A stretch of DNA of 62,791 nt, counting the filler, from Rhabdomonas costata (Eukaryota): NCBI GenBank assembly GCA_019059605.1. It is 23 parts of 23 records of this genome, joined end to end, with 100 filler letters (N's around TTAATTAATTAA, not from the genome) between each part and the next. Parts side by side here need not be neighbours in the genome. Positions count along the whole stretch, not along the records: positions 54,700 to 57,331 come from JAHMHO010002549.1; 22 more parts are not named here. The stretch is one strand, 5' to 3'. Below the pieces are notes generated by a model, which made no database searches, was not told the origin of the DNA, and saw only the letters and a list, made by a program, of their open reading frames with translations. This document shows, piece by piece, positions 4,308-62,791 of this stretch. Made by a program: the position numbers and the translations under genes. How positions within the stretch are numbered: position 1 is the stretch's first letter; every line of letters starts with the position of its first letter.

Positions 4308-6178
4308 TAGCTAACAAATCTCAAAGAGAAACTAAAAAATGACTGCCTGGAAGGAAGAAGAATTTCATTCGCTAACTCTCAGAAACAAGCCAGGGGCTGC
4401 CTCGATTTCCTTCTCTTCCCACAGTGGTAGCCAAGTGTGGGCTCACTCAAGCCCGCCTTTTTCTCCTTGAAATCGAAACCTTCAGAGTTCTACGTTTCAA
4501 CAACTGGCAGACACAGAACCAGACAGGGCAGCGGTTCGTGGACCGGCTGGCCCGGGCACCTGTGCACAGGGGAAGGAAGGAAGGAAGGAAGGAACCAGCT
4601 GAAGCTATCTGGAAGGTGCTTTCTCCAGAGGGGGACCGGGCGATTACCCATCAGTTGGTGTGGGCCCGGCAGTTCCGCCGGAAGCAACTCGGCGGGGTGA
4701 CACCACACTGTGTTTTTTCCGGTACTTCGGTGCAGCTGAAGCCAGTGGATGGGGCCGCTCCTCTTGGAGAGGTGGCGAACAAGGGACTACCAGCTCGGGA
4801 CCCTTTTGAATATTTGCCGAAACGGCACCCAACTTTTGTTTATGGGGTTTGGAGCAAGGCTGCATTGTTGCCAAAAACAAGGCAAAGCGGGAAACTCTTG
4901 TCGGCATAAACAGCGCCAGGTCAATGTTTTACAAAATGAAAAAAAAGTGCTAACAAAAACTCGCGCTTGGGCGGAAGTGCCTGTACCTTTCTGCCATAAA
5001 CCCTATTTCTTTAACCCGCTACAGGCGCCACATAATACAGGACAGATAGAGAACGAATTGCCAGAAAAAAGTATCCTTTCGTCCGCTTGTGGAAGATCAA
5101 GGAGTCGAAAGCTTCCAAAAAAAGTGTCCGCAGCTCACTCATGAAGAAAATGTCTATCACAACGTGAAAAAAACAAAGCTCTGCTTGACATTCCAATCCC
5201 ACATCGGATCCCGTGCCCACTCACTTTCCCATTTTCTCGGGTCTTATTCTGGATTCAAAAAGTTGAGGCAACCTTGCTTTTGTATTATCTGGACATTTGA
5301 GCATAACATGCAACCATGAAACATGCTTAGTGCTCTCTCCAAATGACTTGCTCCCGAAAATAAACACACCCNNNNNNNNNNNNNNNNNNNNNNNNNNNNN
5401 NNNNNNNNNNNNNNNTTAATTAATTAANNNNNNNNNNNNNNNNNNNNNNNNNNNNNNNNNNNNNNNNNNNNGGGGGGTGTGGAAAAAGAAAGGGGAAAGC
5501 TGCACCTGCTGGGGAGTGCATTCAATGCGCCACAAAGGTATTACGAAGACCCAGTGGGGCGACTCTCTCAACTAGTTAATGCCAACTGCCTGGTCACTGG
5601 TAATCCTTTCCTAATTGATTTAGTAGTTTAGTTTAACTGAATTCACTTATCGGTTTGATTGAAGGGCAACAATTTAGGGTGCTCCTTCTGATCGGCGAAG
5701 GGTGGGATACTCTGGAACTCACCCCTGCTGCATACAATCGAGAAAGGCAGAACTGACAACCAATTCTTGTTTTAATGACTGCCTATATATTTCAGCTCTG
5801 TCATTATGGCCTGTGTCCAAAGTGTCCGTCCATTTGGGAGGGCAGCCGCCCTGCCCTCCCACATGGGTCACCATGACTTTATCCCGCGAAACGAGAATAA
5901 TCGAAACGATACGCTTCTAGGAGAAACGCACATCAGTACAAAAAAATCGGGAGCGCGGAAGTGCACTCAATATCACACTAGTACAGCGCAGACACCTTCA
6001 CCCAGCTTGTCCACCTCATACTCACATAGTCCGTGGGATGCCCATTGAAACAAAGAGCAGTGTAAAAACGAAGCACACAACTCGATCGACGCCAAGGGGA
6101 TGGCGACAGCTCTTCTCTCTTCCGGCAGAGCTAAAAATGGCACTGCGCTGGGGGGCTAAACCCCAGTGCACTGCTGCT

Positions 6179-16812: not shown

Positions 16813-17862
16813 ATGACTCAGATCAGCAATCTTGAAGAGGACCTTGCCAGGCTTCCGAATTGTGATACAGAAGGGTCTGAAGCCCCTGCTCGCCTTATCC
16901 TTACCAAGATTGAAGCTCGCGTGCATGCTTTGCGAACGCGTGAGGATGCTATCCAGTTTGCCGAAGCGGGCTTTGCCGTCCGCCAGGCTGCGGTTGAGCG
17001 CTGGAGCAAGCGCAAGGTGAAGCTGGATGTTGGGGGGAGGCTGTTCTCCACTACGACAAGCACGCTACTCTCCGAACCGGACAGCTTCTTCACGGCCTTG
17101 CTGAACACCAGCGTTGGGGTGGAGAGGGACCCTGAGGATGGCTCCATTCTGATTGATCGCTCGCCCGCACACTTCGAGGAGATCCTGGCATACCTTCGGG
17201 AAGGCAAGCTGCCCACCCCGGGGTCTCAGGGTGAGGTGAGTGAGCTTTTGGCGGAGGCACAGTTCTACCAGCTTTCGACGCTGACAGAGAAGCTGAATGG
17301 GATGCAAAGGAGGCAATACGAGCAATTCTTCTCTGCGACGTCGCCGCTGGAGCTTGAGGATAATGGGCGGATGGTTGTGCATGGTGGAACGTCCGGGAGC
17401 TATGGAGTTGCGCGGGCTGCGCCTGGAGTGAGCTTTGGGGTGGCGAGGTGGGCTTTTCGCGCGGATACCTCCAAGCTGACGAAAAGCAGCTTGTCAAAGG
17501 GTTGCCGTGTAGTCAGCCTTGGCTTTACTGCCCATCCCGAAGGCAACTCCGAGCTTAGCTTTGCAGTGGTTCTGTCCTGCTTCAAGGCCGAGGTGAGCTA
17601 CTCACTCGACGGTTGCTATGCGACCTATACTGCTGATGCCCGGATCGACCCTGTGCTGCCGTTTTCTTTTTTGCTGGACTTTGGGGAGGGCACTGTAAAA
17701 ATCACGGTAGGGGGTGGAGGCCCTGTCACAGAGACGATGGGATGCTACCGGATACCTCCTGGGACGTACTATCCTGCCGTCCGGACGAAGCACCCCGGAG
17801 TTGCAGTGAGCTTCGTAGACCTGAACGCTGTGCCTGTTAGGTTTCACCAACCGGTTGAGTGA
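16813..17862 (+). CDS. BTB/POZ (KCTD/T1-type) domain protein with C-terminal SPRY/ConA-like beta domain, 349 aa, intronless
   Basis: VKLDVGGRLFSTTTSTLLSEPDSFF...ILIDRSPAHFEEILAYLR...LLAEAQFYQL is a clear KCTD BTB domain. The C-terminus (GVARWAFR...LDFGEGTV...YYPAV) looks SPRY-like. Confidence 0.92.
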   Translation: MTQISNLEEDLARLPNCDTEGSEAPARLILTKIEARVHALRTREDAIQFAEAGFAVRQAAVERWSKRKVKLDVGGRLFSTTTSTLLSEPDSFFTALLNTSVGVERDPEDGSILIDRSPAHFEEILAYLREGKLPTPGSQGEVSELLAEAQFYQLSTLTEKLNGMQRRQYEQFFSATSPLELEDNGRMVVHGGTSGSYGVARAAPGVSFGVARWAFRADTSKLTKSSLSKGCRVVSLGFTAHPEGNSELSFAVVLSCFKAEVSYSLDGCYATYTADARIDPVLPFSFLLDFGEGTVKITVGGGGPVTETMGCYRIPPGTYYPAVRTKHPGVAVSFVDLNAVPVRFHQPVE

Positions 17863-22674: not shown

Positions 22675-24527
22675 ATGTACTCGTCACTGGGTGCCCTCCT
22701 TGTGGGGTGGTGGGTTTGTTTGCCCCCTGTGCATGCCCTTCCTGGGCTTCCTGGGCTTCCTGGGGGCGGCACCAGCCTGGCATTCACCAACGATATCTCC
22801 GCCGCAGTCATTCCCGACTTCACGCACCTCTCCGGCGCAGTGAACTACTCCATGGAGGCCTGGGTGTACAGCATGTCCGCCATACCGCAGCCCTCGGTGC
22901 TAACCTTTGCCACTTCCGACAACATGGAGTACTGGAGTTTTGTGATGGGAGACGACGCCTTCTTCTCATTGAACGGAGAGAGCCAGATGTTCCCATTTGA
23001 GAGCCCTGGGTTCATGGGTTGGCGGCATGTTGCGATGACTGTGACGGATGGCGACGTCCGCGGGTAATTTTTTTGTGGAATCAGCGCATCACTGATGCAA
23101 TCGGAAAGTCGGGGTGGGGGGGATACATCGGAAAGTGTGTTTTACCTCATCGAGCGCTTCATGGGGATGGGACCAGCTCTTATTTGGCCTGTTGTGCGCG
23201 ACCAGAAAAGTTTCACTTCTAACCCACTCTCAATTGCAATAATGATGGGAACCAAAATTCTTGTTTTGGACCTATTTGCATTTGGATTTCCCCACTCTCA
23301 ACTTCCCTCCCGTCACGCTGACCGCTCTTTCCTGTCGATTTTTTATCCGGAACGCTATGATCCAGAATTTGCCTTGTTTTTGAAGAGCGCATTCTCGTTT
23401 CTCGTTTCGCATACGTTTGTGGTTGCATTTACAATGTTCAGAGTTCGCTGTCTTTGCGGTGCATCTCGTTGGGTTTACAGATACGTCAACGGTACGCTGA
23501 TCGCTCAGTACAACTGGAGCGCTCCTGCCTTTGCGGACAGTGCGTTTTTTGTCATCTCGAAATACACCACTGGCTGGGACAACACCACCTTGCAGACCGC
23601 CACCAGTCTGAATTTTCTCGGGTGCTCGTTTTCTGCCCTTTCTCCCGCTTTCCCATTTCCCCGCTTGAACTTTGTGCCTCTGATGTCGTATGTGAGCGTA
23701 TTCAATCATTCTATGTTGATCCGTCTCTCTCTCAGGTACATCGACGAGATTAGAGTCTGGAACACTACTTTAACGCAAGAAGAGCTGCAGACGAACATGC
23801 ACCGTCGGTTCGCGCGTGTGCGTTTGTATTGGGAGTGTAATTTCTCGGTAAGTGTGTATTTACACTTCGCCTAAGTGCATATACCCTTCGCCTACCGTCT
23901 CCCCCCGAGTGTCTTTCACCGATATAAGTGTCCGATCAATAGGTAGAATTGTATCAGGATAGTGCGAATCTGATCTAATTTATCTTCCTCGCCTCTGCCA
24001 TACCTTTGCAACCACAGCCCTATTGATCAAACTCCACTGTCCTACACCTCCAGCGGGTGTGGCGGCGGCTTTTTATTTGTCGTTTCCTGTGTGTGGGTGT
24101 GGGTGTGCGCGCGCGCGCGCTGTTTCTTGACACCCCAAATATAAGTACAATTACCCTTAACAGGCATCCTGGGGGAGGCGGTGTAACTATTACAGCCGAT
24201 AATCTTCCCTAAAGTGCCAAAAAGCGACGAAACAATGATCTAGTTTTTCTCTTGACACGTGGTTCCCTCCAGAAGGGAAGCGATAAAGTTTAACCATTCG
24301 GTGGATTTCCCTGATACGCGTTCCCGGGTGATGTTCCCTGCTTCGTGTTTGTGTGTACATATACAGCCTCTCTGAGGACACCCCCAACCTGGTGGTGCAG
24401 TGGCACTTCGATGACCTCACGGACAGCCCCGATGGCCTGCTGGCCCTCTCCGCGCAGGGCATCCCACTTTCCCTCGTAGACAGCACCAATATGCAGGACA
24501 CCTCCTGCGGAGGCACCACCCCCCCCC
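22675..24527 (+). CDS. Secreted LamG/pentraxin-like (ConA-like) domain protein, 3' partial
   Basis: Exons 22675-23063, 23481-23621, 23736-23807 and 24367-24527. Signal peptide followed by LamG motifs YSMEAWV, WRHVAMT, YVNG, FLGYIDEIRVWN..L, LVVQWHFD. Confidence 0.9.
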
Positions 24528-41491: not shown

Positions 41492-41522
<31 letters not shown>

Positions 41523-54782: not shown

Positions 54783-55804
54783 TTAGTATCCCTTAGTCAC
54801 GGGGCCCAGCTGAACCACCTCAAAGTTCGCCGCGGTGAGGACCTTCAGCTTGTTCATGTTGTTGTCGTTCCAGCGCGAGTCGGGCGTTCCGGAAACGTAC
54901 AGGTTCGAGCCATTGTCGGCCAGGATGAGCCCGTAGACTTTGAGGGCAGTCAAAATAACCTGTGCATCTGCAGGAAACTTCGAGATGTCGTACGAGGCTT
55001 TCAGGCGGAGCCGAGCACCCATAGGAAGGTAGGTCGGGTCCTTGATCGTGCTGGCATAGTGCCTGGCAGGGCTTACGTAAGCCTTCTGAGTCTTCGCGGC
55101 GGTGAAGCGGAGAGCGTGCTGAGAAGGCGAAAAAAAGCACGGTCTGCACTTCAAAATACTGAATGGTTCAAGCTTGGGAGAATCAACCCCTCGCACACCG
55201 TGATCTGCTTCCGCAAGACGACCTCGTCATACCACACCAGGCCAGGAAGGATGGGAAGCCCGGCAGCGTCCGCCGACGTCCAGCCTGCGGGACGAAGAAC
55301 ATTGCTATTGAGATCGAAAATGGCGCCCGAGTCGGCCTTCCACCCCGTAGACCCACTGGGCGGAAACGCGTTGTACAGCTCGTACAGCCTCCAGTTGTCA
55401 CGGTCCAGAGCGATGGTGTGTCGGTCACCCGTGGACGTGGCCCCACCCTCAATCGGGATGTTGGACGGGAGCGGGTAAGGGCCCTTATCACTTTCGTCAG
55501 AGTACGTAAACGTCACGTTGAACTTGGTCTGGTTCCCCGGAACGACGATGTAGGGAATCCCGAAAGGACCGCCGTTCCAGTTCGCCCCAAAGTCAGGGTG
55601 GAACTTTGTGTTCGAACCACCCAGATGTTGGATGAAAATCGCAGAGTTGGGGTCCACGGGCAGGTTGTTGATCGGAGTGTTCCAGGGGTTGTTGGAGGGA
55701 AAGATTTGCTTTCCTTTCAGGTCCGCCAAGATCCCAAGGTCTGGAGTCGTGTCGCACCAGCAAGAGCCCATCAATGAAAGCAGTATGCACAGACAGATAT
55801 GCAT
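54783..55804 (-). CDS. 313-aa secreted protein resembling an uncharacterised bacterial family; complete gene with one intron
   Basis: Exons 55804-55199 and 55118-54783 (TAA) with an 80-bp GT-AG intron at 55198-55119. Signal peptide. Motifs NPWNTPI..LPVDPNS, HPDFG, GIPY, Y.DESD.GPYP, IEGG..GDRH, LYELY, LRP.GWTSADAAGLP, HALRFT, PMG.R.RLK, YG.ILADNGS. Confidence 0.92.
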
Positions 55805-57471
55805 TCTCCAGGCACCCTTTCCGCGAAAAAATCAAGGCGGAATAGTGGAAGGAAAGGAACGTGGACCCGCAGGAGCGAGAAAAAAAGCATACGGAACCCA
55901 AAAGGCCACGGCGGCACAAATTCGCCGAGCGTCGTTAGATTTTATACCCAAAACCTCAAGTACCACGAAATTTCCTATCGACATTCGAAGGACGCGGGGC
56001 TGGTGCGTTCACAGAACCTGTGGCAAGACCTCCGTGACTGTACCACGACCTTTCAAACAAACCTTGTGAAAAATATGACACCAACGCCCAATGTTCTAAA
56101 GAAAAAACGTGTTCGCTGCGCTGCTTTGAAAGATAAAAACTGAAAGGAACACTGTTCTTATAATGAAACAACACTCAACCCAACCGTCACTTCTGACTTC
56201 TGACTTCTGATGATGCAACAATGCTTCACTCAACCTGGCCATTTGGTTGACGGACGGAAAATTCAGCGATCCCTTTATTCGTATTTTCAACCTTTCTCTC
56301 AAACTTCAGCCTTCCAACTGAAATACCATTCCAAACAGCCAAACAAGAGCGAAGGTGTGTCGCTGCTGGAACATCCAAACATCGCAGCGGGTTCTGACCA
56401 AAACTCGCTTTTGAGTCTTCGAAACAGTGCTCTCCTTTTTTATTTTGCGAAGGGGGCGGTCGATAATGGTGACATCCTGTTTGCACACAGCAAGTCTGAC
56501 GGCGGCTGAAAACCGTTTCGCCCTTTCAATGCCAAACCGCGGTGTCATGGTCCATTATTATTCAATCAAGAAGGGACATTCAAAGATGAGAAACTTCTCA
56601 GAAACAAAAAACGTGGAGTCATAATTCAAATAAACCGGATTTTGGGAAGAAATTTTCCTGGTCATTCTTATTTTTGAATGTCCTAAAGTCTTATTTTGAA
56701 TGCACGGAAATCTTGAATATGAAATGCTCTATCATGTATCGTGTATCGTGCCGAAGCACATCGTGGGGTCACTTCATTCTGTGCCTTATGACTCACAATT
56801 GGTAAAATTGCGACTTTAAGGACTTCCGAATGGAGTTTCTGACAAACTCACAAGAAACTTCGCAGGGAAGTCAGCATGAGTTTTCCTACGTGGGAATTAC
56901 CACTCAGGTTTTTTTTTTTTGTTTTGAGACCCCTTTTTTGGTGTACATGGTGCTCCGGCCCAACAAAAGCAAACGCTTACGTTGCATTCCAGTTACATTT
57001 CGCGTTCAACTGTTCTCTTTTTATTGGGGGCTGTTTTTTGAAAGCTCGCTTTGGGTTGTGGCACCGCGGCCCAAAATCACTTCGAGCAGGTTGTAAACGA
57101 ATTAACCGTACCACCCGCCAAGACGGTCTCTATTTCCGTACCCGTAACACAGAAAAAAAACGAAAGAAGAAAAATCAAAAAACAGTTTTTTGGTTTTTAT
57201 GAAAAACAAAGAAACCAGTTTTTTTACAGCGCTCACCGACACTCGGCACCCCAAGTCCGAGTGCACCAAGCGGCCGGAGACCACTGAGAAGGATGGATGG
57301 AGGCGTGGGCATAAAGATCGCGGTGACCTCCNNNNNNNNNNNNNNNNNNNNNNNNNNNNNNNNNNNNNNNNNNNNTTAATTAATTAANNNNNNNNNNNNN
57401 NNNNNNNNNNNNNNNNNNNNNNNNNNNNNNNGGTTTTTTTTGGTTCGGCTTGGCTTGCGTTTGTGGCGCAG

Positions 57472-58113: not shown

Positions 58114-60543
58114 GTTCGCTCGTGGGCTCGTGGTAATGGATTGGGAACTGGGGGGCTTCGGCACTCGAGGAAAGGTTTCTGTTCGGAGCAAATGAACAGG
58201 GCAGTGGTACAAGGAAGAAATTCTTTGTTCCATGTCAATATAGTGCTGCCTATAGACTTGAACATTCACAGTCGATACGCGTACTCCAGCCCCCGCACCA
58301 CACGCCTGTACTCAGATGTACCTGCAAAGGGCATTGCCTTTTCCATTATTTATGACAGTATCGCTTGAGCAGCGCAAAATCGTGTCCGTGTAATTTTGGG
58401 GTGGTGTCCAAATGGAGCTTGATTTTAAATGGAGTTAAATATCATAAATGGAATTTTGGATACCGCTCTGAGGAACTGCCTGACGCCTGAATGAGGGTTA
58501 CGGCGTACACTTCCAGGGCATCTTCAGACACTGCTACTTCTTCAGACACTCGCAATTGCTTTTTTCGGAATGCACTTAACTACACAAAGGAAGCCGCCCT
58601 TGGCCCTGCACACCGAATGTTTTCCCAAGATACCATCCTCCTCTCCCCACGCCACAGTGGTACTCGCCGATTCCCCAAAAAGATTCAAGAATTCAACCAA
58701 GAAAAACCAAAGCTGAGAAGGGAAGTACCACAGAGCAAAGCAAAGCGGGGACTAAGCCTGTTGACATTGCATTCACTTTTTTTTCGTTAACGTGCCTTTT
58801 TCATTCGACTGACCAACACAAACAACCTCATTTGCAGGTAAAATAGCCTTTTTTCTTCATAATGCAATAGAATTGGGGATCCCAAAACGTGGAACCTGGG
58901 AGTATATAAGAAATGCCAGAACTCCAACAAACTAGTGTGGGTTAACGAAAACCAGATGGAAATAAGGGGTATGATTATACTTTTTCGCAGCTGTCCTCGT
59001 TACTAACCCTTGGCGAGTATACCCGCTGCTGAAGGGGACCCAGCCTCTCATTTCTCTGGAAATCCAGCGGCAAGGCAAACCACCAAAACCTTTGCAGCGC
59101 ACAGAGTCCCTCACTGGAAATTCTTTGAGAAAAACCCAACACACACACAAAACAATCCAAACAAACAAACAAACCAAACAAACCAAAAGTTGTTGAGAGC
59201 TGACCTTAAAGAAGACCTATCGCCCGAGTGTACTTAATGGTGCCTCGAAGATTTCATATACACAGTGAGGCAAAGAAGAGCTCCAGGCTCCCATCTCGGG
59301 CCCCCAGTGCTGCTGCATAATGATTGGGGAAGTCTACATTGCAAAACGAGCACACTTCGAGAGAAAAGAAGACCACTCACTGAGTGACCACAAGTGGCAC
59401 AAACAAAGAGAAAAATCAGGCACAGCGCCGACCGGGCCTATTGAAACTTGCAAAGTCCTAGCAAGCGGCCATGCGACGCAACTCGGGTGACTCGCTCCTG
59501 CACAACGGCGAGCTGCTGAGTCACAGGTTGCATGTAAGGAGGGGTTTGTGTAAGTGCGCAAGACTGGTAGTTCTGGCAGATTTTTAGTTGGTTGCGGGTG
59601 TGGTCTCACGGTACAAAAATCGAAAAAGAACGACACAGTGCATCCGGTACTGGCTACCCAGGGCCAGGCAAAATGCACACGTTCACAGTGCAATGCTGAA
59701 GCGTAGGGTGGGGCGAGGGGAGGGGTTCGGAAAGAAGCATGATTTCACAGCGTTATTAGGAAGTGAAAAAAAAAGAATTGCATCGTGAAAGCAACTCCTC
59801 CCTGAGAAAATCGTGCTGCCTCGAACATTCGTTCAAGGGCCGAGCTGCCTTGGATCCATTCGAGGACTCATTCGCACCACGGGGGTGACGCCTCCGCAGC
59901 ATTTACACCCCGCACAGTGCATCACCATGGCTCTACAGGAATGTTGTGAAAACGCATCGCAGGGCGCGGAAAGCCGGGCATCGACAGTCACAGTCTTCCT
60001 TCTTAGAAAAGGAAGAAGAAAAAACACACCTAGAGTTAAAAATGGTGCCTTAAAAAACACCNNNNNNNNNNNNNNNNNNNNNNNNNNNNNNNNNNNNNNN
60101 NNNNNTTAATTAATTAANNNNNNNNNNNNNNNNNNNNNNNNNNNNNNNNNNNNNNNNNNNNGGGGTGGTGTGTTGAACAAAGAAATACCAAAAAGAAGAC
60201 CAGAGAGAGACAGAGAATCCGAGAATCCGAGAATTTTGAATTTTGAATTTGCGACATTTATTCACGGTTGTGGCAGCAACAGTGGCGCGAAAGCATAACA
60301 GTACAGTGACATCGGGAAAAAAAAGAGGAGGTGGAGACAGGTGAGGTGGGTTGGTTGCAGAAACGTGGGGGAACGGGGGCGGTCGGGGTGACGGGCTTTG
60401 AAGGAAAACAAGAGAAGCCGACCGCTGCGAGAAAAAGCGCCACTGCATTCAAGTCTCGATCACACACGCATGCGACGACAGAAGATTTCAGATGCACATG
60501 TACGGAGGCAGCCCCCCAAAAAACAAGAGGGGGGGATTAAAAC

Positions 60544-62791
60544 CTCTCCATGTCCCGGAACTCTAGGTCGATCTTCGATGCACTCATCTCCAGCAAATTC
60601 TGCATCGCCTGCTCATACTTCGCTGCCCCCACCAGCGCCGCAAACGCCGTCACCGAGGCCTCCACCTCTCCCCTCCGCAGGATACGCGACTTCACCGCGG
60701 GCTCGCCATCCTCCTCGTCGTCATCCTCATCCCCTGCCTCTGCCTTCGCTCCCAGCTCCTCCCTAGAGCGCTTTTGCTGGGCGGGAGGCAGCAGCCACTC
60801 AGGGGTGATCCCCGGGGTGGTGGCCAGGAAGAAGGGGGCGGAGAGCGTCTCTGGGGGCTTCACGGGCTTGCTGCGCGCCACAATGAGGTCAAGGTTGGGC
60901 AGCATGGCCCACTTAGGCCGTGGAGTCCCAGAGAGGGTCACCAGGCCGGCCTTGCACTGGTCCAACACCTGTAATGTGCACCACCCCGGCCGTTGGGGGA
61001 ATTCGAAAAACCCTTCCCTCGGTGCGAGAAGATGCGGGCTGCCATACAAATATAAAAAGCGACATCACAGAGACATAACTCCTCCCAAATCCTCTCCTGT
61101 GTATATTCCAAAAGGGGGACAATTTTTGGGATTAGTTTGGGATCAGAAGGCCCAGATGCTTGAACTCGCTGAAGTATCACGGAATCAAAGAATCGCAGAA
61201 TCGTAGCCCTCACACCCGATTTCCCGCACACTGTGTTGCACAAGTCTGCAACAAAAAAAGGACAGAGGCCCATTATTGGAAAAAGGTGGAGGCCAATCGG
61301 ATGAAAATGAGAACCAGATCAGCCCTGCAGACCTGGGGGTCGGGCTTCTGCACCACATCTGCGATGTCCTGGAAGGCATCGGCTACGGCCGGAGGGGCCC
61401 TGGACGGGGGCTCCTCGTGGGCCTCTGCTGAAGTCTCGGAGGGTTCCGCGGCCTGGGGGTCGGCCTCGCGCTCCGCCGCGGTTGCAGGCAGGGGCTGGGC
61501 CTCCTGGGAGAGCAGCAGGGCCTCATCCTTGACCCGCTGCGGGATGACGCCGTACTTCATCATGTTCGTCCAGAGGTACACCCCAAGCTAAGGGGGAAGA
61601 GGACAGGCCACACCGGCACATTGGGTGCGTTAAAAGTAGGCACGGTGCAAATTGTGGAAATGGAGTTGATAAGCCGAACCAAAAACATCTACAGTATCTC
61701 TGTGACGGTTCAAAATCCTGTGAATGACCTGCAAGGGAAGAATCTGTCATAAAAGGCTGCACAGTGGACGCCCACGGGGGACCATTGCACCACAATTTTG
61801 CACTCCTTTTACCGGAGAACTCGAAACTCGAAAGAAACAAAAAGCAAAAAGCAAAAAGCAAGTGGGAGTGGAGCTAGATGTCGAGCTTTTCTAAAGTCCG
61901 ACATGCGGGCAGGACGCTTTGTCCCATACCCACGAAAACACAGCAGACGATTGGGGTAGGGATGGCACGAGATTTTGGGAGTAAGGGTAGGGTTGGAGGG
62001 AGGGGCCCTTGCACCTGCCCCTGGTGCGTGGTGGCCAGAAACTGGAAACTGGGGTGCATCGCCATGGAGGTGACGGGGAACTCGAACCGGTACAGGTCCA
62101 CCAGCAGGTCCGTGGGAAGGTGAGTGACCCGTAGGGTGCCGTCCATGCTGCTGGTCAGGGCAAACGCGGAGTCCGGACTGAATACTACCCCGGTGACCGC
62201 CGCGCCGTGTCCCCGAAGCAGACGAACCGGGGAGACCACCCCTGCGTAAAGGTTGACAGAAAGTCCAAATAATGCAGGAGGCTCTGGGAAAGGGTAAGCG
62301 TCACCAGAAAGCCAAAACTAAGTGAACTATCAGTGAAAAACAGTAAATTGTGGCAAAGGTAATACGGGCGTCTGCGATTTCAAACCCCCGAGTTGAGATG
62401 CATCAACAATGCTCATTGAAAAAGGCACAAGCTAATCTACGTTTTAAATTTCGGCATGGTTCACCAGTCCGCCGAATTCCCCCCCCTCCACTGATCGAGT
62501 GATAATACAACTGCTTCTTTTTGCAGAATTAAAGCACGAATAGCCCACACACCGTGACGGAAGGGCCGTCGGACCGCTCCTGCAGACTTCTTCAGCACCG
62601 GTATCGGGGCCCGGACAATCGATCTCTTCTCCTTGAGCTCCGCAGCCTTCGCTCGGATGGCCGCTGCCAGCCTGCTCTTGGCCCCTACAGAGGGAGGCAG
62701 CTTGGCCGCCGCCGCGGCCCCACTCCCTGCTGTGGCGGGATCCAGCAGATCCACAGGCTGGTGCTCAAGGTTGATATCGTACACCCCCACC
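60544..62791 (-). CDS. UTP21: U3 snoRNA-associated protein 21 / WDR36, internal fragment
   Basis: Exons 62791-62553, 62241-62015, 61587-61333 and 60968-60544. WD40 repeat GHGAAVTGVVFSPDS...SSMDGTLRV, FLATTH, GVYLWTN, and the Utp21 domain LVTLSGTPRPKW..L.NLDLI..R.KP..PP...APFFL. Confidence 0.95.

Follow-up and report, generated by a model that had tools for sequence, protein, structure and literature searches.

RESULTS

An intron-bearing gene on a short contig of Rhabdomonas costata

We analyzed a stretch of 62,791 bases (the window) from assembly GCA_019059605.1 of the eukaryote Rhabdomonas costata, and we report on a minus-strand gene within it (55804 to 54783) that encodes a 313-amino-acid (aa) protein of an overwhelmingly bacterial family. 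The window consists of 23 pieces of 2,630 to 2,649 bases joined by linkers of the form N44-TTAATTAATTAA-N44 (2638 to 2737, 5372 to 5471, and so on to 60062 to 60161). The pieces look like short contigs from a fragmented assembly, and genes on opposite sides of a linker are physically unlinked. Because the window is made of 23 unlinked contigs, the DNA physically linked to the gene is only the approximately 2.6 kb of its own contig (54700 to 57331), and all other "host" comparisons are with other contigs of the same assembly.

Exon 1 (55804 to 55199; 202 codons) opens with an ATG at 55804 to 55802 and encodes a probable signal peptide (residues 1 to 17) and the N-terminal two-thirds of the domain, with the motifs PWNTPI, HPDFG, GDRH, LYELY, and WTSADAAGLP. 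An 80-nucleotide (nt) spliceosomal-type intron (55198 to 55119; GT..AG, phase 0, GC 0.475) precedes exon 2 (55118 to 54786; 111 codons), which encodes the C-terminal third of the domain with the motifs HALRFT, PMGARLRLK, and ADNGS. The TAA stop codon (54785 to 54783) leaves 83 nt of 3' flank before the contig ends at 54700. The 5' flank (55805 to 57331; 1.5 kb, GC 0.449) contains poly-A/T tracts and reaches the contig end. A preliminary description of this DNA had proposed a complete gene for a 313-aa protein, and its coordinates were borne out. The ordered motifs it listed were all found in the exon translations (PWNTPINNLPVDPNS, HPDFG, YSDESDKGPYP, GDRH, LYELY, GWTSADAAGLP, HALRFT, and ADNGS). 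The signal peptide it proposed fits the hydrophobic N terminus MHICLCILLSLMGSCWC, which is signal peptide-like as judged by eye, and residues 3 to 10 form a low-confidence helix in an AlphaFold2 model. The protein probably enters the secretory pathway through this predicted signal peptide.

Removal of the intron restores a full-length family member

The donor site is a G followed by GTGTGCGA, which begins GTGTGC, and the acceptor CTTTTTTTCGCCTTCTCAG has a pyrimidine tract followed by CAG. If the intron were read through, the frame would meet a stop after 15 codons and the C-terminal 111 aa would be lost. In an alignment of 71 diverse family sequences (alignment A1), exon 2 holds the invariant residues H203, T208, P234, G236, and L241 and the near-invariant D270-N271-G272. 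The predicted spliced transcript joins CAGATCACG to CACGCTCTC. In the protein, DEVVLRKQIT joined to HALRFTAAKTQKAYV aligns without a gap with the bacterial DEVVEQKEIRHAIRFTVAHSRRAYV, and RKQIT/HALRFT is collinear with the bacterial QKEIRHAIRFT. EukProt record P0003 (313 aa) is the spliced product and differs from the window protein only at residues 6, 130, and 191; these differences mean that it derives from a different source of sequence, a different allele, or a different copy. The gap-free junction, the invariant residues in exon 2, and the P0003 record together argue that the 80-nt intron is real, with the length and GTGTGC start that the preliminary description had given it. We also considered an introner origin and dropped it, as a search of the window found no second copy of the intron.

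The gene belongs to a very large bacterial family

A search with exon 1 matched 7,999 of 8,000 scored clusters at an E value of ≤1e-3. Among the best 120 clusters, the 119 other than the gene itself gave E values of 8e-78 to 1e-69, and the best nonself matches were 57 to 72% identical. Just one of these 120 came from EukProt, and it was the gene itself; the 15 whose source was named were bacterial metagenome-assembled genome (MAG) or compost metagenome sequences, and the rest were unnamed metagenome or assembly records. An exhaustive HMMER scan found at least 5,256 clusters (50% identity) at an E value of ≤1e-3, with 891 at ≤1e-30. Neighbors in the ESM Atlas were unnamed clusters that were 98 to 100% bacterial.

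Among GTDB species genomes, 598 of the 600 pattern matches listed encode a relative. Out of the matches listed, we kept 80 loci for translations, trees, and measurement of GC content at third codon positions (GC3). They span the Acidobacteriota, Gemmatimonadota, Armatimonadota, Actinomycetota, Chloroflexota, Planctomycetota, Bdellovibrionota, Verrucomicrobiota, and Pseudomonadota and one archaeal MAG. The last of these (locus L057) is labeled as a Methanomicrobiales archaeon; its copy may be truly archaeal or may result from faulty binning.

Similarity by tblastn in these 80 loci was full length and collinear, covering residues ∼20 to 310. The bacterial homologues were 55 to 69% identical to the gene product, and A1 members were 45 to 66% identical. 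Across its 71 sequences, A1 has 33 invariant and ∼80 near-invariant columns, including H, D, E, and R residues, as the preliminary description had noted from the motifs. The window protein keeps 114 of the 116 positions conserved at ≥90%; the two losses are R191W, found in the window copy only, and P233L. The same description had pointed to a widespread, unannotated family of bacterial exported proteins. This assignment held, with thousands of clusters from many phyla and no library match. A full-text literature search found no description of the family, which may be described under another name.

The gene nests within bacterial diversity

We placed the protein in two trees. A FastTree tree of 200 rows (P0003 residues 21 to 313, the 80 locus translations, and P0004 to P0122) grouped P0003 with a Dehalococcoidia MAG and 13 metagenome proteins (the P0036 group), a set of 15 rows with a support of 98. 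An IQ-TREE quick tree recovered the same 15-row set with a Shimodaira-Hasegawa-like approximate likelihood ratio test (SH-aLRT) value of 93; its 61 rows were the 51 of the surrounding clade and 10 named loci, taken at every sixth. Two contigs of the P0036 group carry genes of bacterial operons, including a Liv-type ABC transporter, NrfD, BTAD, luciferase-like monooxygenases, and ThuA. The gene therefore lies inside bacterial diversity in both trees, and the only eukaryotic sequence among its best 120 matches is itself. These results agree with the proposal in the preliminary description of an intron-bearing eukaryotic copy of a bacterial exported-protein family, and they make horizontal transfer from bacteria to a eukaryote very probable.

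Two details of this transfer are less sharp. The sister grouping of P0003 with the Dehalococcoidia MAG had a support of only 21, too low to name a donor lineage. The terminal branch of the eukaryotic sequence was 0.44 and 0.61 in the two trees, where the median was 0.18 and 0.25, respectively, and no bacterial sequence exceeded a best identity of 66 to 69%. Because of this long branch and modest identity, the transfer is not demonstrably recent, and we do not retain the earlier suggestion that the gene was recently acquired.

The flanking DNA and splice site compared with those of other contigs

The 1.5-kb upstream flank is richer in AT than the coding sequence (GC 0.449 versus 0.571). The sole open frame of more than 121 aa that reaches into it (55554 to 56066, plus strand; 171 aa) lies mostly over the gene. 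Sigma-70-like promoter and terminator-like sites in this flank occurred at chance level, an Rfam scan of the whole window gave no match, and no second recognizable gene was found on the 2.6-kb contig, where small flank frames were outside the protein library scans. The 5' flank looks like eukaryotic intergenic DNA.

On another contig, an apparently intron-less gene (16813 to 17862, plus strand; 349 aa) encodes a BTB_2 domain of the potassium channel tetramerization type (Pfam E value of 1.6e-20). It was the sole open reading frame (ORF) among the 24 largest in the window to score above the Pfam curated cutoff.

Two arguments made earlier against contamination did not hold up. GC3 had been called host-like; it is 0.736 in our coding sequence, 0.637 in the BTB gene (the one confirmed host gene), and a median of 0.757 in the 80 bacterial homologues. 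Because the homologues range from 0.35 to 0.97, GC3 does not discriminate host from bacteria, and we rejected it as an uninformative sign of amelioration. The GTGTGC donor had been called host type; GGTGTGC occurs 11 times in the window versus 10.05 expected from shuffles, so it is not enriched, and protein searches with two ORFs of other contigs (23068 to 23871, plus strand, and 60540 to 61064, minus strand) retrieved no spliced host proteins. The stronger arguments against contamination are the exact in-frame intron, the AT-richer, noncoding-like flank, and the independent spliced record.

We made several further observations on splice sites in the window. An ORF-joining heuristic gave 2,133 candidate introns without a clear consensus. 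GT(G/C)(T/C)GC donors that are plausible by eye but unverified lie near 61231, 61332, 7296, 38725, and 49379. At 60540 to 61587 (minus strand), two high-GC3 open frames (0.77 and 0.81) resemble exons belonging to a single gene, with candidate donors GTCTGC (∼61332) and GTGTGC (61231) and pyrimidine-rich acceptors; the larger frame matched nothing in the protein search. Simple GT/GC repeats at 24091 to 24125 (GTGTGGGTGTGGGTGTGCGCGCGCGCGC) and at 41500 to 41520 [(GT)n] add to the GTGTGC counts and are not splice sites.

The predicted structure weakly resembles glycan-active barrels

An AlphaFold2 model made with 71 sequences was mostly beta and confident, with a predicted local distance difference test (pLDDT) score of 92 and a predicted template modeling (pTM) score of 0.89. 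Comparison of the model with 48,161 chains by VIA-align gave 36 rows with a Z score of ≥2. Five of the top nine are MltA-family lytic transglycosylases, aligned over 161 to 179 residues with a root mean square deviation of ∼6 Å and Z scores of 3.2 to 4.3, where 4.3 is the maximum of the search and, by the tool's own note, a Z score of <8 may reflect a common arrangement only. Most of the 36 rows are what we take to be double-psi beta-barrel proteins (expansins, GH45 enzymes, cerato-platanins, barwin-like proteins, and YuiC). Because the MltA matches span model residues 35 to 311, N- and C-terminal segments would together make up the predicted barrel, and a subdomain would be inserted.

We compared A1 with bacterial MltA and 3D-domain sequences using hhalign. 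Neither alignment was significant: seven MltA-length ORFs gave a P value of 0.014 (probability, 3%) and six short 3D-domain ORFs gave a P value of 0.0037 (probability, 9%). Both alignments were collinear, pairing AGSGAIFDL with the IQGSG region of MltA and LPPMGMRVRL...ADNGS..SG with P(L/F)G..V.....D(T/S)GG.IKG of the 3D domain. In MltA, the catalytic aspartate (Asp308 in the Escherichia coli enzyme) lies in the 3D domain. In the nonsignificant 3D alignment, D270 of ADNGS stands opposite the second Asp of the 3D motif, and D282 is offset by one column from the third. D270 and D282 are both conserved at ≥90% in A1, and we regard them as candidate counterparts of the MltA catalytic aspartate. 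We rejected membership in the MltA family (GH102), as none of the 71 A1 members matched Pfam MltA (PF03562) or 3D (PF06725) and the hhalign probabilities were low. As modeled, the resemblance to MltA is one of fold only and is not family membership by any sequence test.

Phage virion proteins are distant relatives

A Foldseek search of the BFVD gave five matches with E values of 1e-12 to 1.5e-7 and template modeling (TM) scores of 0.52 to 0.63, including a minor tail protein of Gordonia phage Guillaume and another phage protein in which parallel beta-helix repeats occur. The A1 profile also aligned with gp18 of Gordonia phage Stormageddon over 228 columns (hhalign probability, 96.5%; E value, 8.6e-10). 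This 638-aa protein (QGJ94881.1; locus L103, 4251 to 6167) is named a glycosylhydrolase in GenBank MN586040.1 and a minor tail protein in RefSeq NC_054726.1. A hypothetical protein of Microcystis phage Mae-JY09 (locus L081, 5578 to 6675), encoded two genes after a 1,554-aa protein, matched with an E value of 1e-4. Pfam found no domain in gp18 or in the Mae-JY09 protein. Judged by these matches, the phage proteins are true, if distant, homologues of the family.

Family members are fused to extracellular modules

From the 150 members listed in the HMMER scan, we chose 46 long ones for a scan of fusion partners. Those found were fn3 (seven members), FG-GAP (three), and BACON, Big_2, Kre9_KNH, and Flg_new_2 (two each), with single cases of Ricin-B lectin, Malectin, Laminin_G_3, PKD, SLH, GH44, Beta_helix, and others. 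These partners are typical of extracellular glycan-active proteins. Some bacterial members (P0123, P0124, P0125, P0126, P0132, and P0161) repeat the domain in tandem, with two or three copies in proteins of 648 to 2,917 aa. Among these, P0126 additionally contains Beta_helix and fn3 modules, whereas P0256 combines one copy of the domain with a GH44 module.

DISCUSSION

We propose that this locus is a captured gene for a bacterial-type exported enzyme and that its product cleaves glycans, and we give this reading as a whole a probability of about 0.6. In this proposal, a bacterial gene would have been captured by a microbial eukaryote and then would have gained one spliceosomal intron, and the nuclear gene would have been kept under constraint. 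The structure of the gene, its membership in the family, its bacterial affinity, and the conservation of its residues are shown by the results; secretion, fold class, substrate class, and catalytic residues are what we infer beyond them. The mature protein would be one globular, mostly beta domain, its core closest to the double-psi beta-barrel of MltA-type lytic transglycosylases, GH45 endoglucanases, and expansins, with an inserted subdomain, as in MltA. A polysaccharide chain of a cell wall or another extracellular glycan would be bound in the cleft between barrel and insert and be cut in an MltA- or GH45-like manner by conserved carboxylates, for which D71, D127, E142, D179, D270, and D282 are candidates. 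The likeliest substrate is a polysaccharide from a cell envelope or an extracellular matrix. In the eukaryote, the enzyme would work extracellularly or inside a digestive compartment, with bacterial or other glycans as its targets; the idea of prey digestion raised in the preliminary description is speculation.

The glycan-cleaving function is suggested by the modeled fold theme, the phage tail relatives, and the lectin-type fusions, and we hold it at even odds. The preliminary description had proposed a secreted hydrolase or lyase, and of that proposal a glycan enzyme is plausible on these grounds as a predicted function. A more specific idea is tentative: that the family may form a new class of enzymes cleaving envelope or extracellular polysaccharides, comprising at least 5,256 clusters from many bacterial phyla and phage, with an MltA-like barrel and motifs of its own (HPDFG, GDRH, WTSADAAGLP, and ADNGS), and that a protist may have captured one member and kept it under purifying selection for use against walls or other glycans.

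Several results weigh against this proposal. Pfam gave no matches at an E value of ≤10 for the exons, P0003, or any of the 71 A1 members, apart from stray matches in one or two members, and NCBIfam, a PDB profile search, and PHROGs gave no matches to the family; as judged by these searches, no sequence method ties it to any characterized enzyme. Foldseek, which the preliminary description had suggested together with AlphaFold, found no PDB match for the model at an E value of ≤0.001. The VIA-align Z scores and the two MltA and 3D profile alignments fall short in the ways given above. Pfam finds nothing in the phage protein that would account for its label "glycosylhydrolase." Of the neighborhood and fusion analyses that had also been suggested, the fusions to lectin-type and immunoglobulin-like modules are encouraging, but 17 of the 46 long members had no recognizable partner domain, and the neighborhoods of 66 of the 80 bacterial loci (117 neighbor ORFs) had no conserved operon partner and only scattered glycan genes. 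On the eukaryotic side, splicing and expression rest on P0003, which may be a transcript or a prediction, and the best 120 matches contained no further eukaryotic member, with no systematic survey of eukaryotes made. Residue 191 (55232 to 55234, minus strand) is TGG (W) in the window copy versus R in P0003 and 68 of 70 relatives; W191 may reflect a different allele, another copy of the gene, or an error in sequencing at this near-invariant site.

Two other accounts of the origin of the gene deserve consideration. It might be a bacterial contaminant or an assembly chimera, in which case the "intron" would be an 80-bp segment inserted by chance into a bacterial pseudogene. A contig of only 2.6 kb with the gene 83 nt from its end, a GC3 value that fails to separate host from bacteria, and a donor motif that is not enriched in the window would all suit this account. 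We find it scarcely credible, since the inserted segment runs from GT to AG, includes a pyrimidine tract, sits exactly in phase 0, and on removal restores a gap-free alignment. The gene model also recurs in a second, nonidentical record with three residue differences and the same spliced product; the flank is AT richer, has no bacterial-style ORFs of its own, and has promoter and terminator matches only at chance level; and a pseudogene would not be expected to keep 114 of 116 conserved positions intact. The family might instead be ancestrally eukaryotic or broadly vertical in eukaryotes, or have moved from eukaryotes to bacteria, an account left some room by the limited coverage of eukaryotic genomes here and by one Atlas cluster that is 98%, not 100%, bacterial. 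It is very improbable given that the single eukaryotic sequence among the best 120 matches is the gene itself, that the nearest Atlas clusters are 98 to 100% bacterial, that bacterial clusters of the family number in the thousands, cover many phyla, and are joined by phage relatives, and that the eukaryotic sequence nests in a subclade whose sampled contigs are bacterial.

The same transfer could also have delivered a protein with a different activity. A noncatalytic role, as a wall-loosening or binding protein in the style of expansins, loosenins, or cerato-platanins or as an inhibitor like the Streptomyces papain inhibitor, would be in keeping with the many nonhydrolytic VIA-align rows (expansins, a loosenin, cerato-platanins, and the papain inhibitor 5ntb) and with the absence of a match to any known-family catalytic motif. 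We judge it unlikely: the density of invariant and near-invariant columns, with their H, D, E, and R residues, is more enzyme-like, the size and insert fit MltA best (161 to 179 residues aligned versus 78 to 105 for expansins), and a phage virion relative is labeled a glycosylhydrolase. That the protein is an enzyme but of a different class (a peptidase, an esterase, or an amidase that attacks the stem peptides of peptidoglycan) seems distinctly unlikely. Conserved H69, H129, and H203 together with D and S residues could form such a hydrolase site, phage tail lysins are often peptidases, and the best nonsignificant Foldseek rows in the PDB include the M23 peptidase LytM; against this, the LytM rows are noise (E values of 0.7 to 3; TM scores of 0.09 to 0.11), the VIA-align fold theme is that of glycan-active barrels, and the fusion partners are of lectin and carbohydrate-binding module types. 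A captured gene for a glycan-cleaving enzyme is thus the reading we prefer.

The locus offers a clean, well-supported example of bacterium-to-protist transfer followed by intron gain, with a strongly conserved coding sequence, and bears on the secreted enzyme repertoire of microbial eukaryotes. The family is more interesting than the transfer event: it is very large, goes unrecognized by Pfam, NCBIfam, PHROGs, and the PDB, can be modeled with confidence, and extends to distant relatives in phage virions. Knowledge of its substrate could establish it as a new CAZy-type family of enzymes that degrade walls or polysaccharides. Enzymes of this sort matter to work on phage lysins, on microbial predation, and on the turnover of glycans in soils and waters.

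Among known systems, the top structural matches are the MltA lytic transglycosylases (CAZy GH102; PF03562 plus 3D PF06725; PDB 2pi8, 2g6g, 3czb, 7esj, and 6qk4). Both groups are exported, and their profiles match weakly and collinearly. However, HPDFG, GDRH, and WTSADAAGLP pair with no part of the MltA or 3D profiles aligned here, and the MltA proteins are outer membrane lipoproteins of peptidoglycan turnover, whereas members of this family are fused to lectin-type modules. The GH45 endoglucanases, expansins/EXLX1, loosenins, cerato-platanins, barwin, and YuiC recur among the VIA-align rows (7xc8, 1n10, 9ms5, 7wvr, 4jcw, 3x2g, 5glx, 6mvj, 3sul, 4jp6, and 4wjt), which are presumably all double-psi beta-barrels. 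They too are secreted and act on polysaccharides, but they align over 78 to 124 residues (Z scores of 2.1 to 3.6), whereas our protein has ∼290 residues and an extra subdomain, and Pfam detected no sequence similarity between the family and these single-domain barrels. The phage protein gp18 has in common with the family the motifs FP..N.WNTPI, GL(V/I)R..E....I.HAL, PMG, and YGM.V.D..GS; the phage proteins differ in being larger, multidomain, and virion associated, gp18 does not conserve GDRH and WTSADAAGLP, and their function is known by annotation alone. The product of the aphid gene rlpA is likewise a barrel-fold protein.

As a transfer event, a parallel is found in aphids, in which rlpA, amiD, and ldcA are reported to be bacterial cell wall genes transferred to a eukaryote (PMC9116674). 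The kind of event is the same, a bacterial envelope-active gene domesticated in a eukaryotic genome; the family and host lineage are different, and for the gene reported here both function and expression are putative. The transfer itself is of a known kind and will not surprise specialists.

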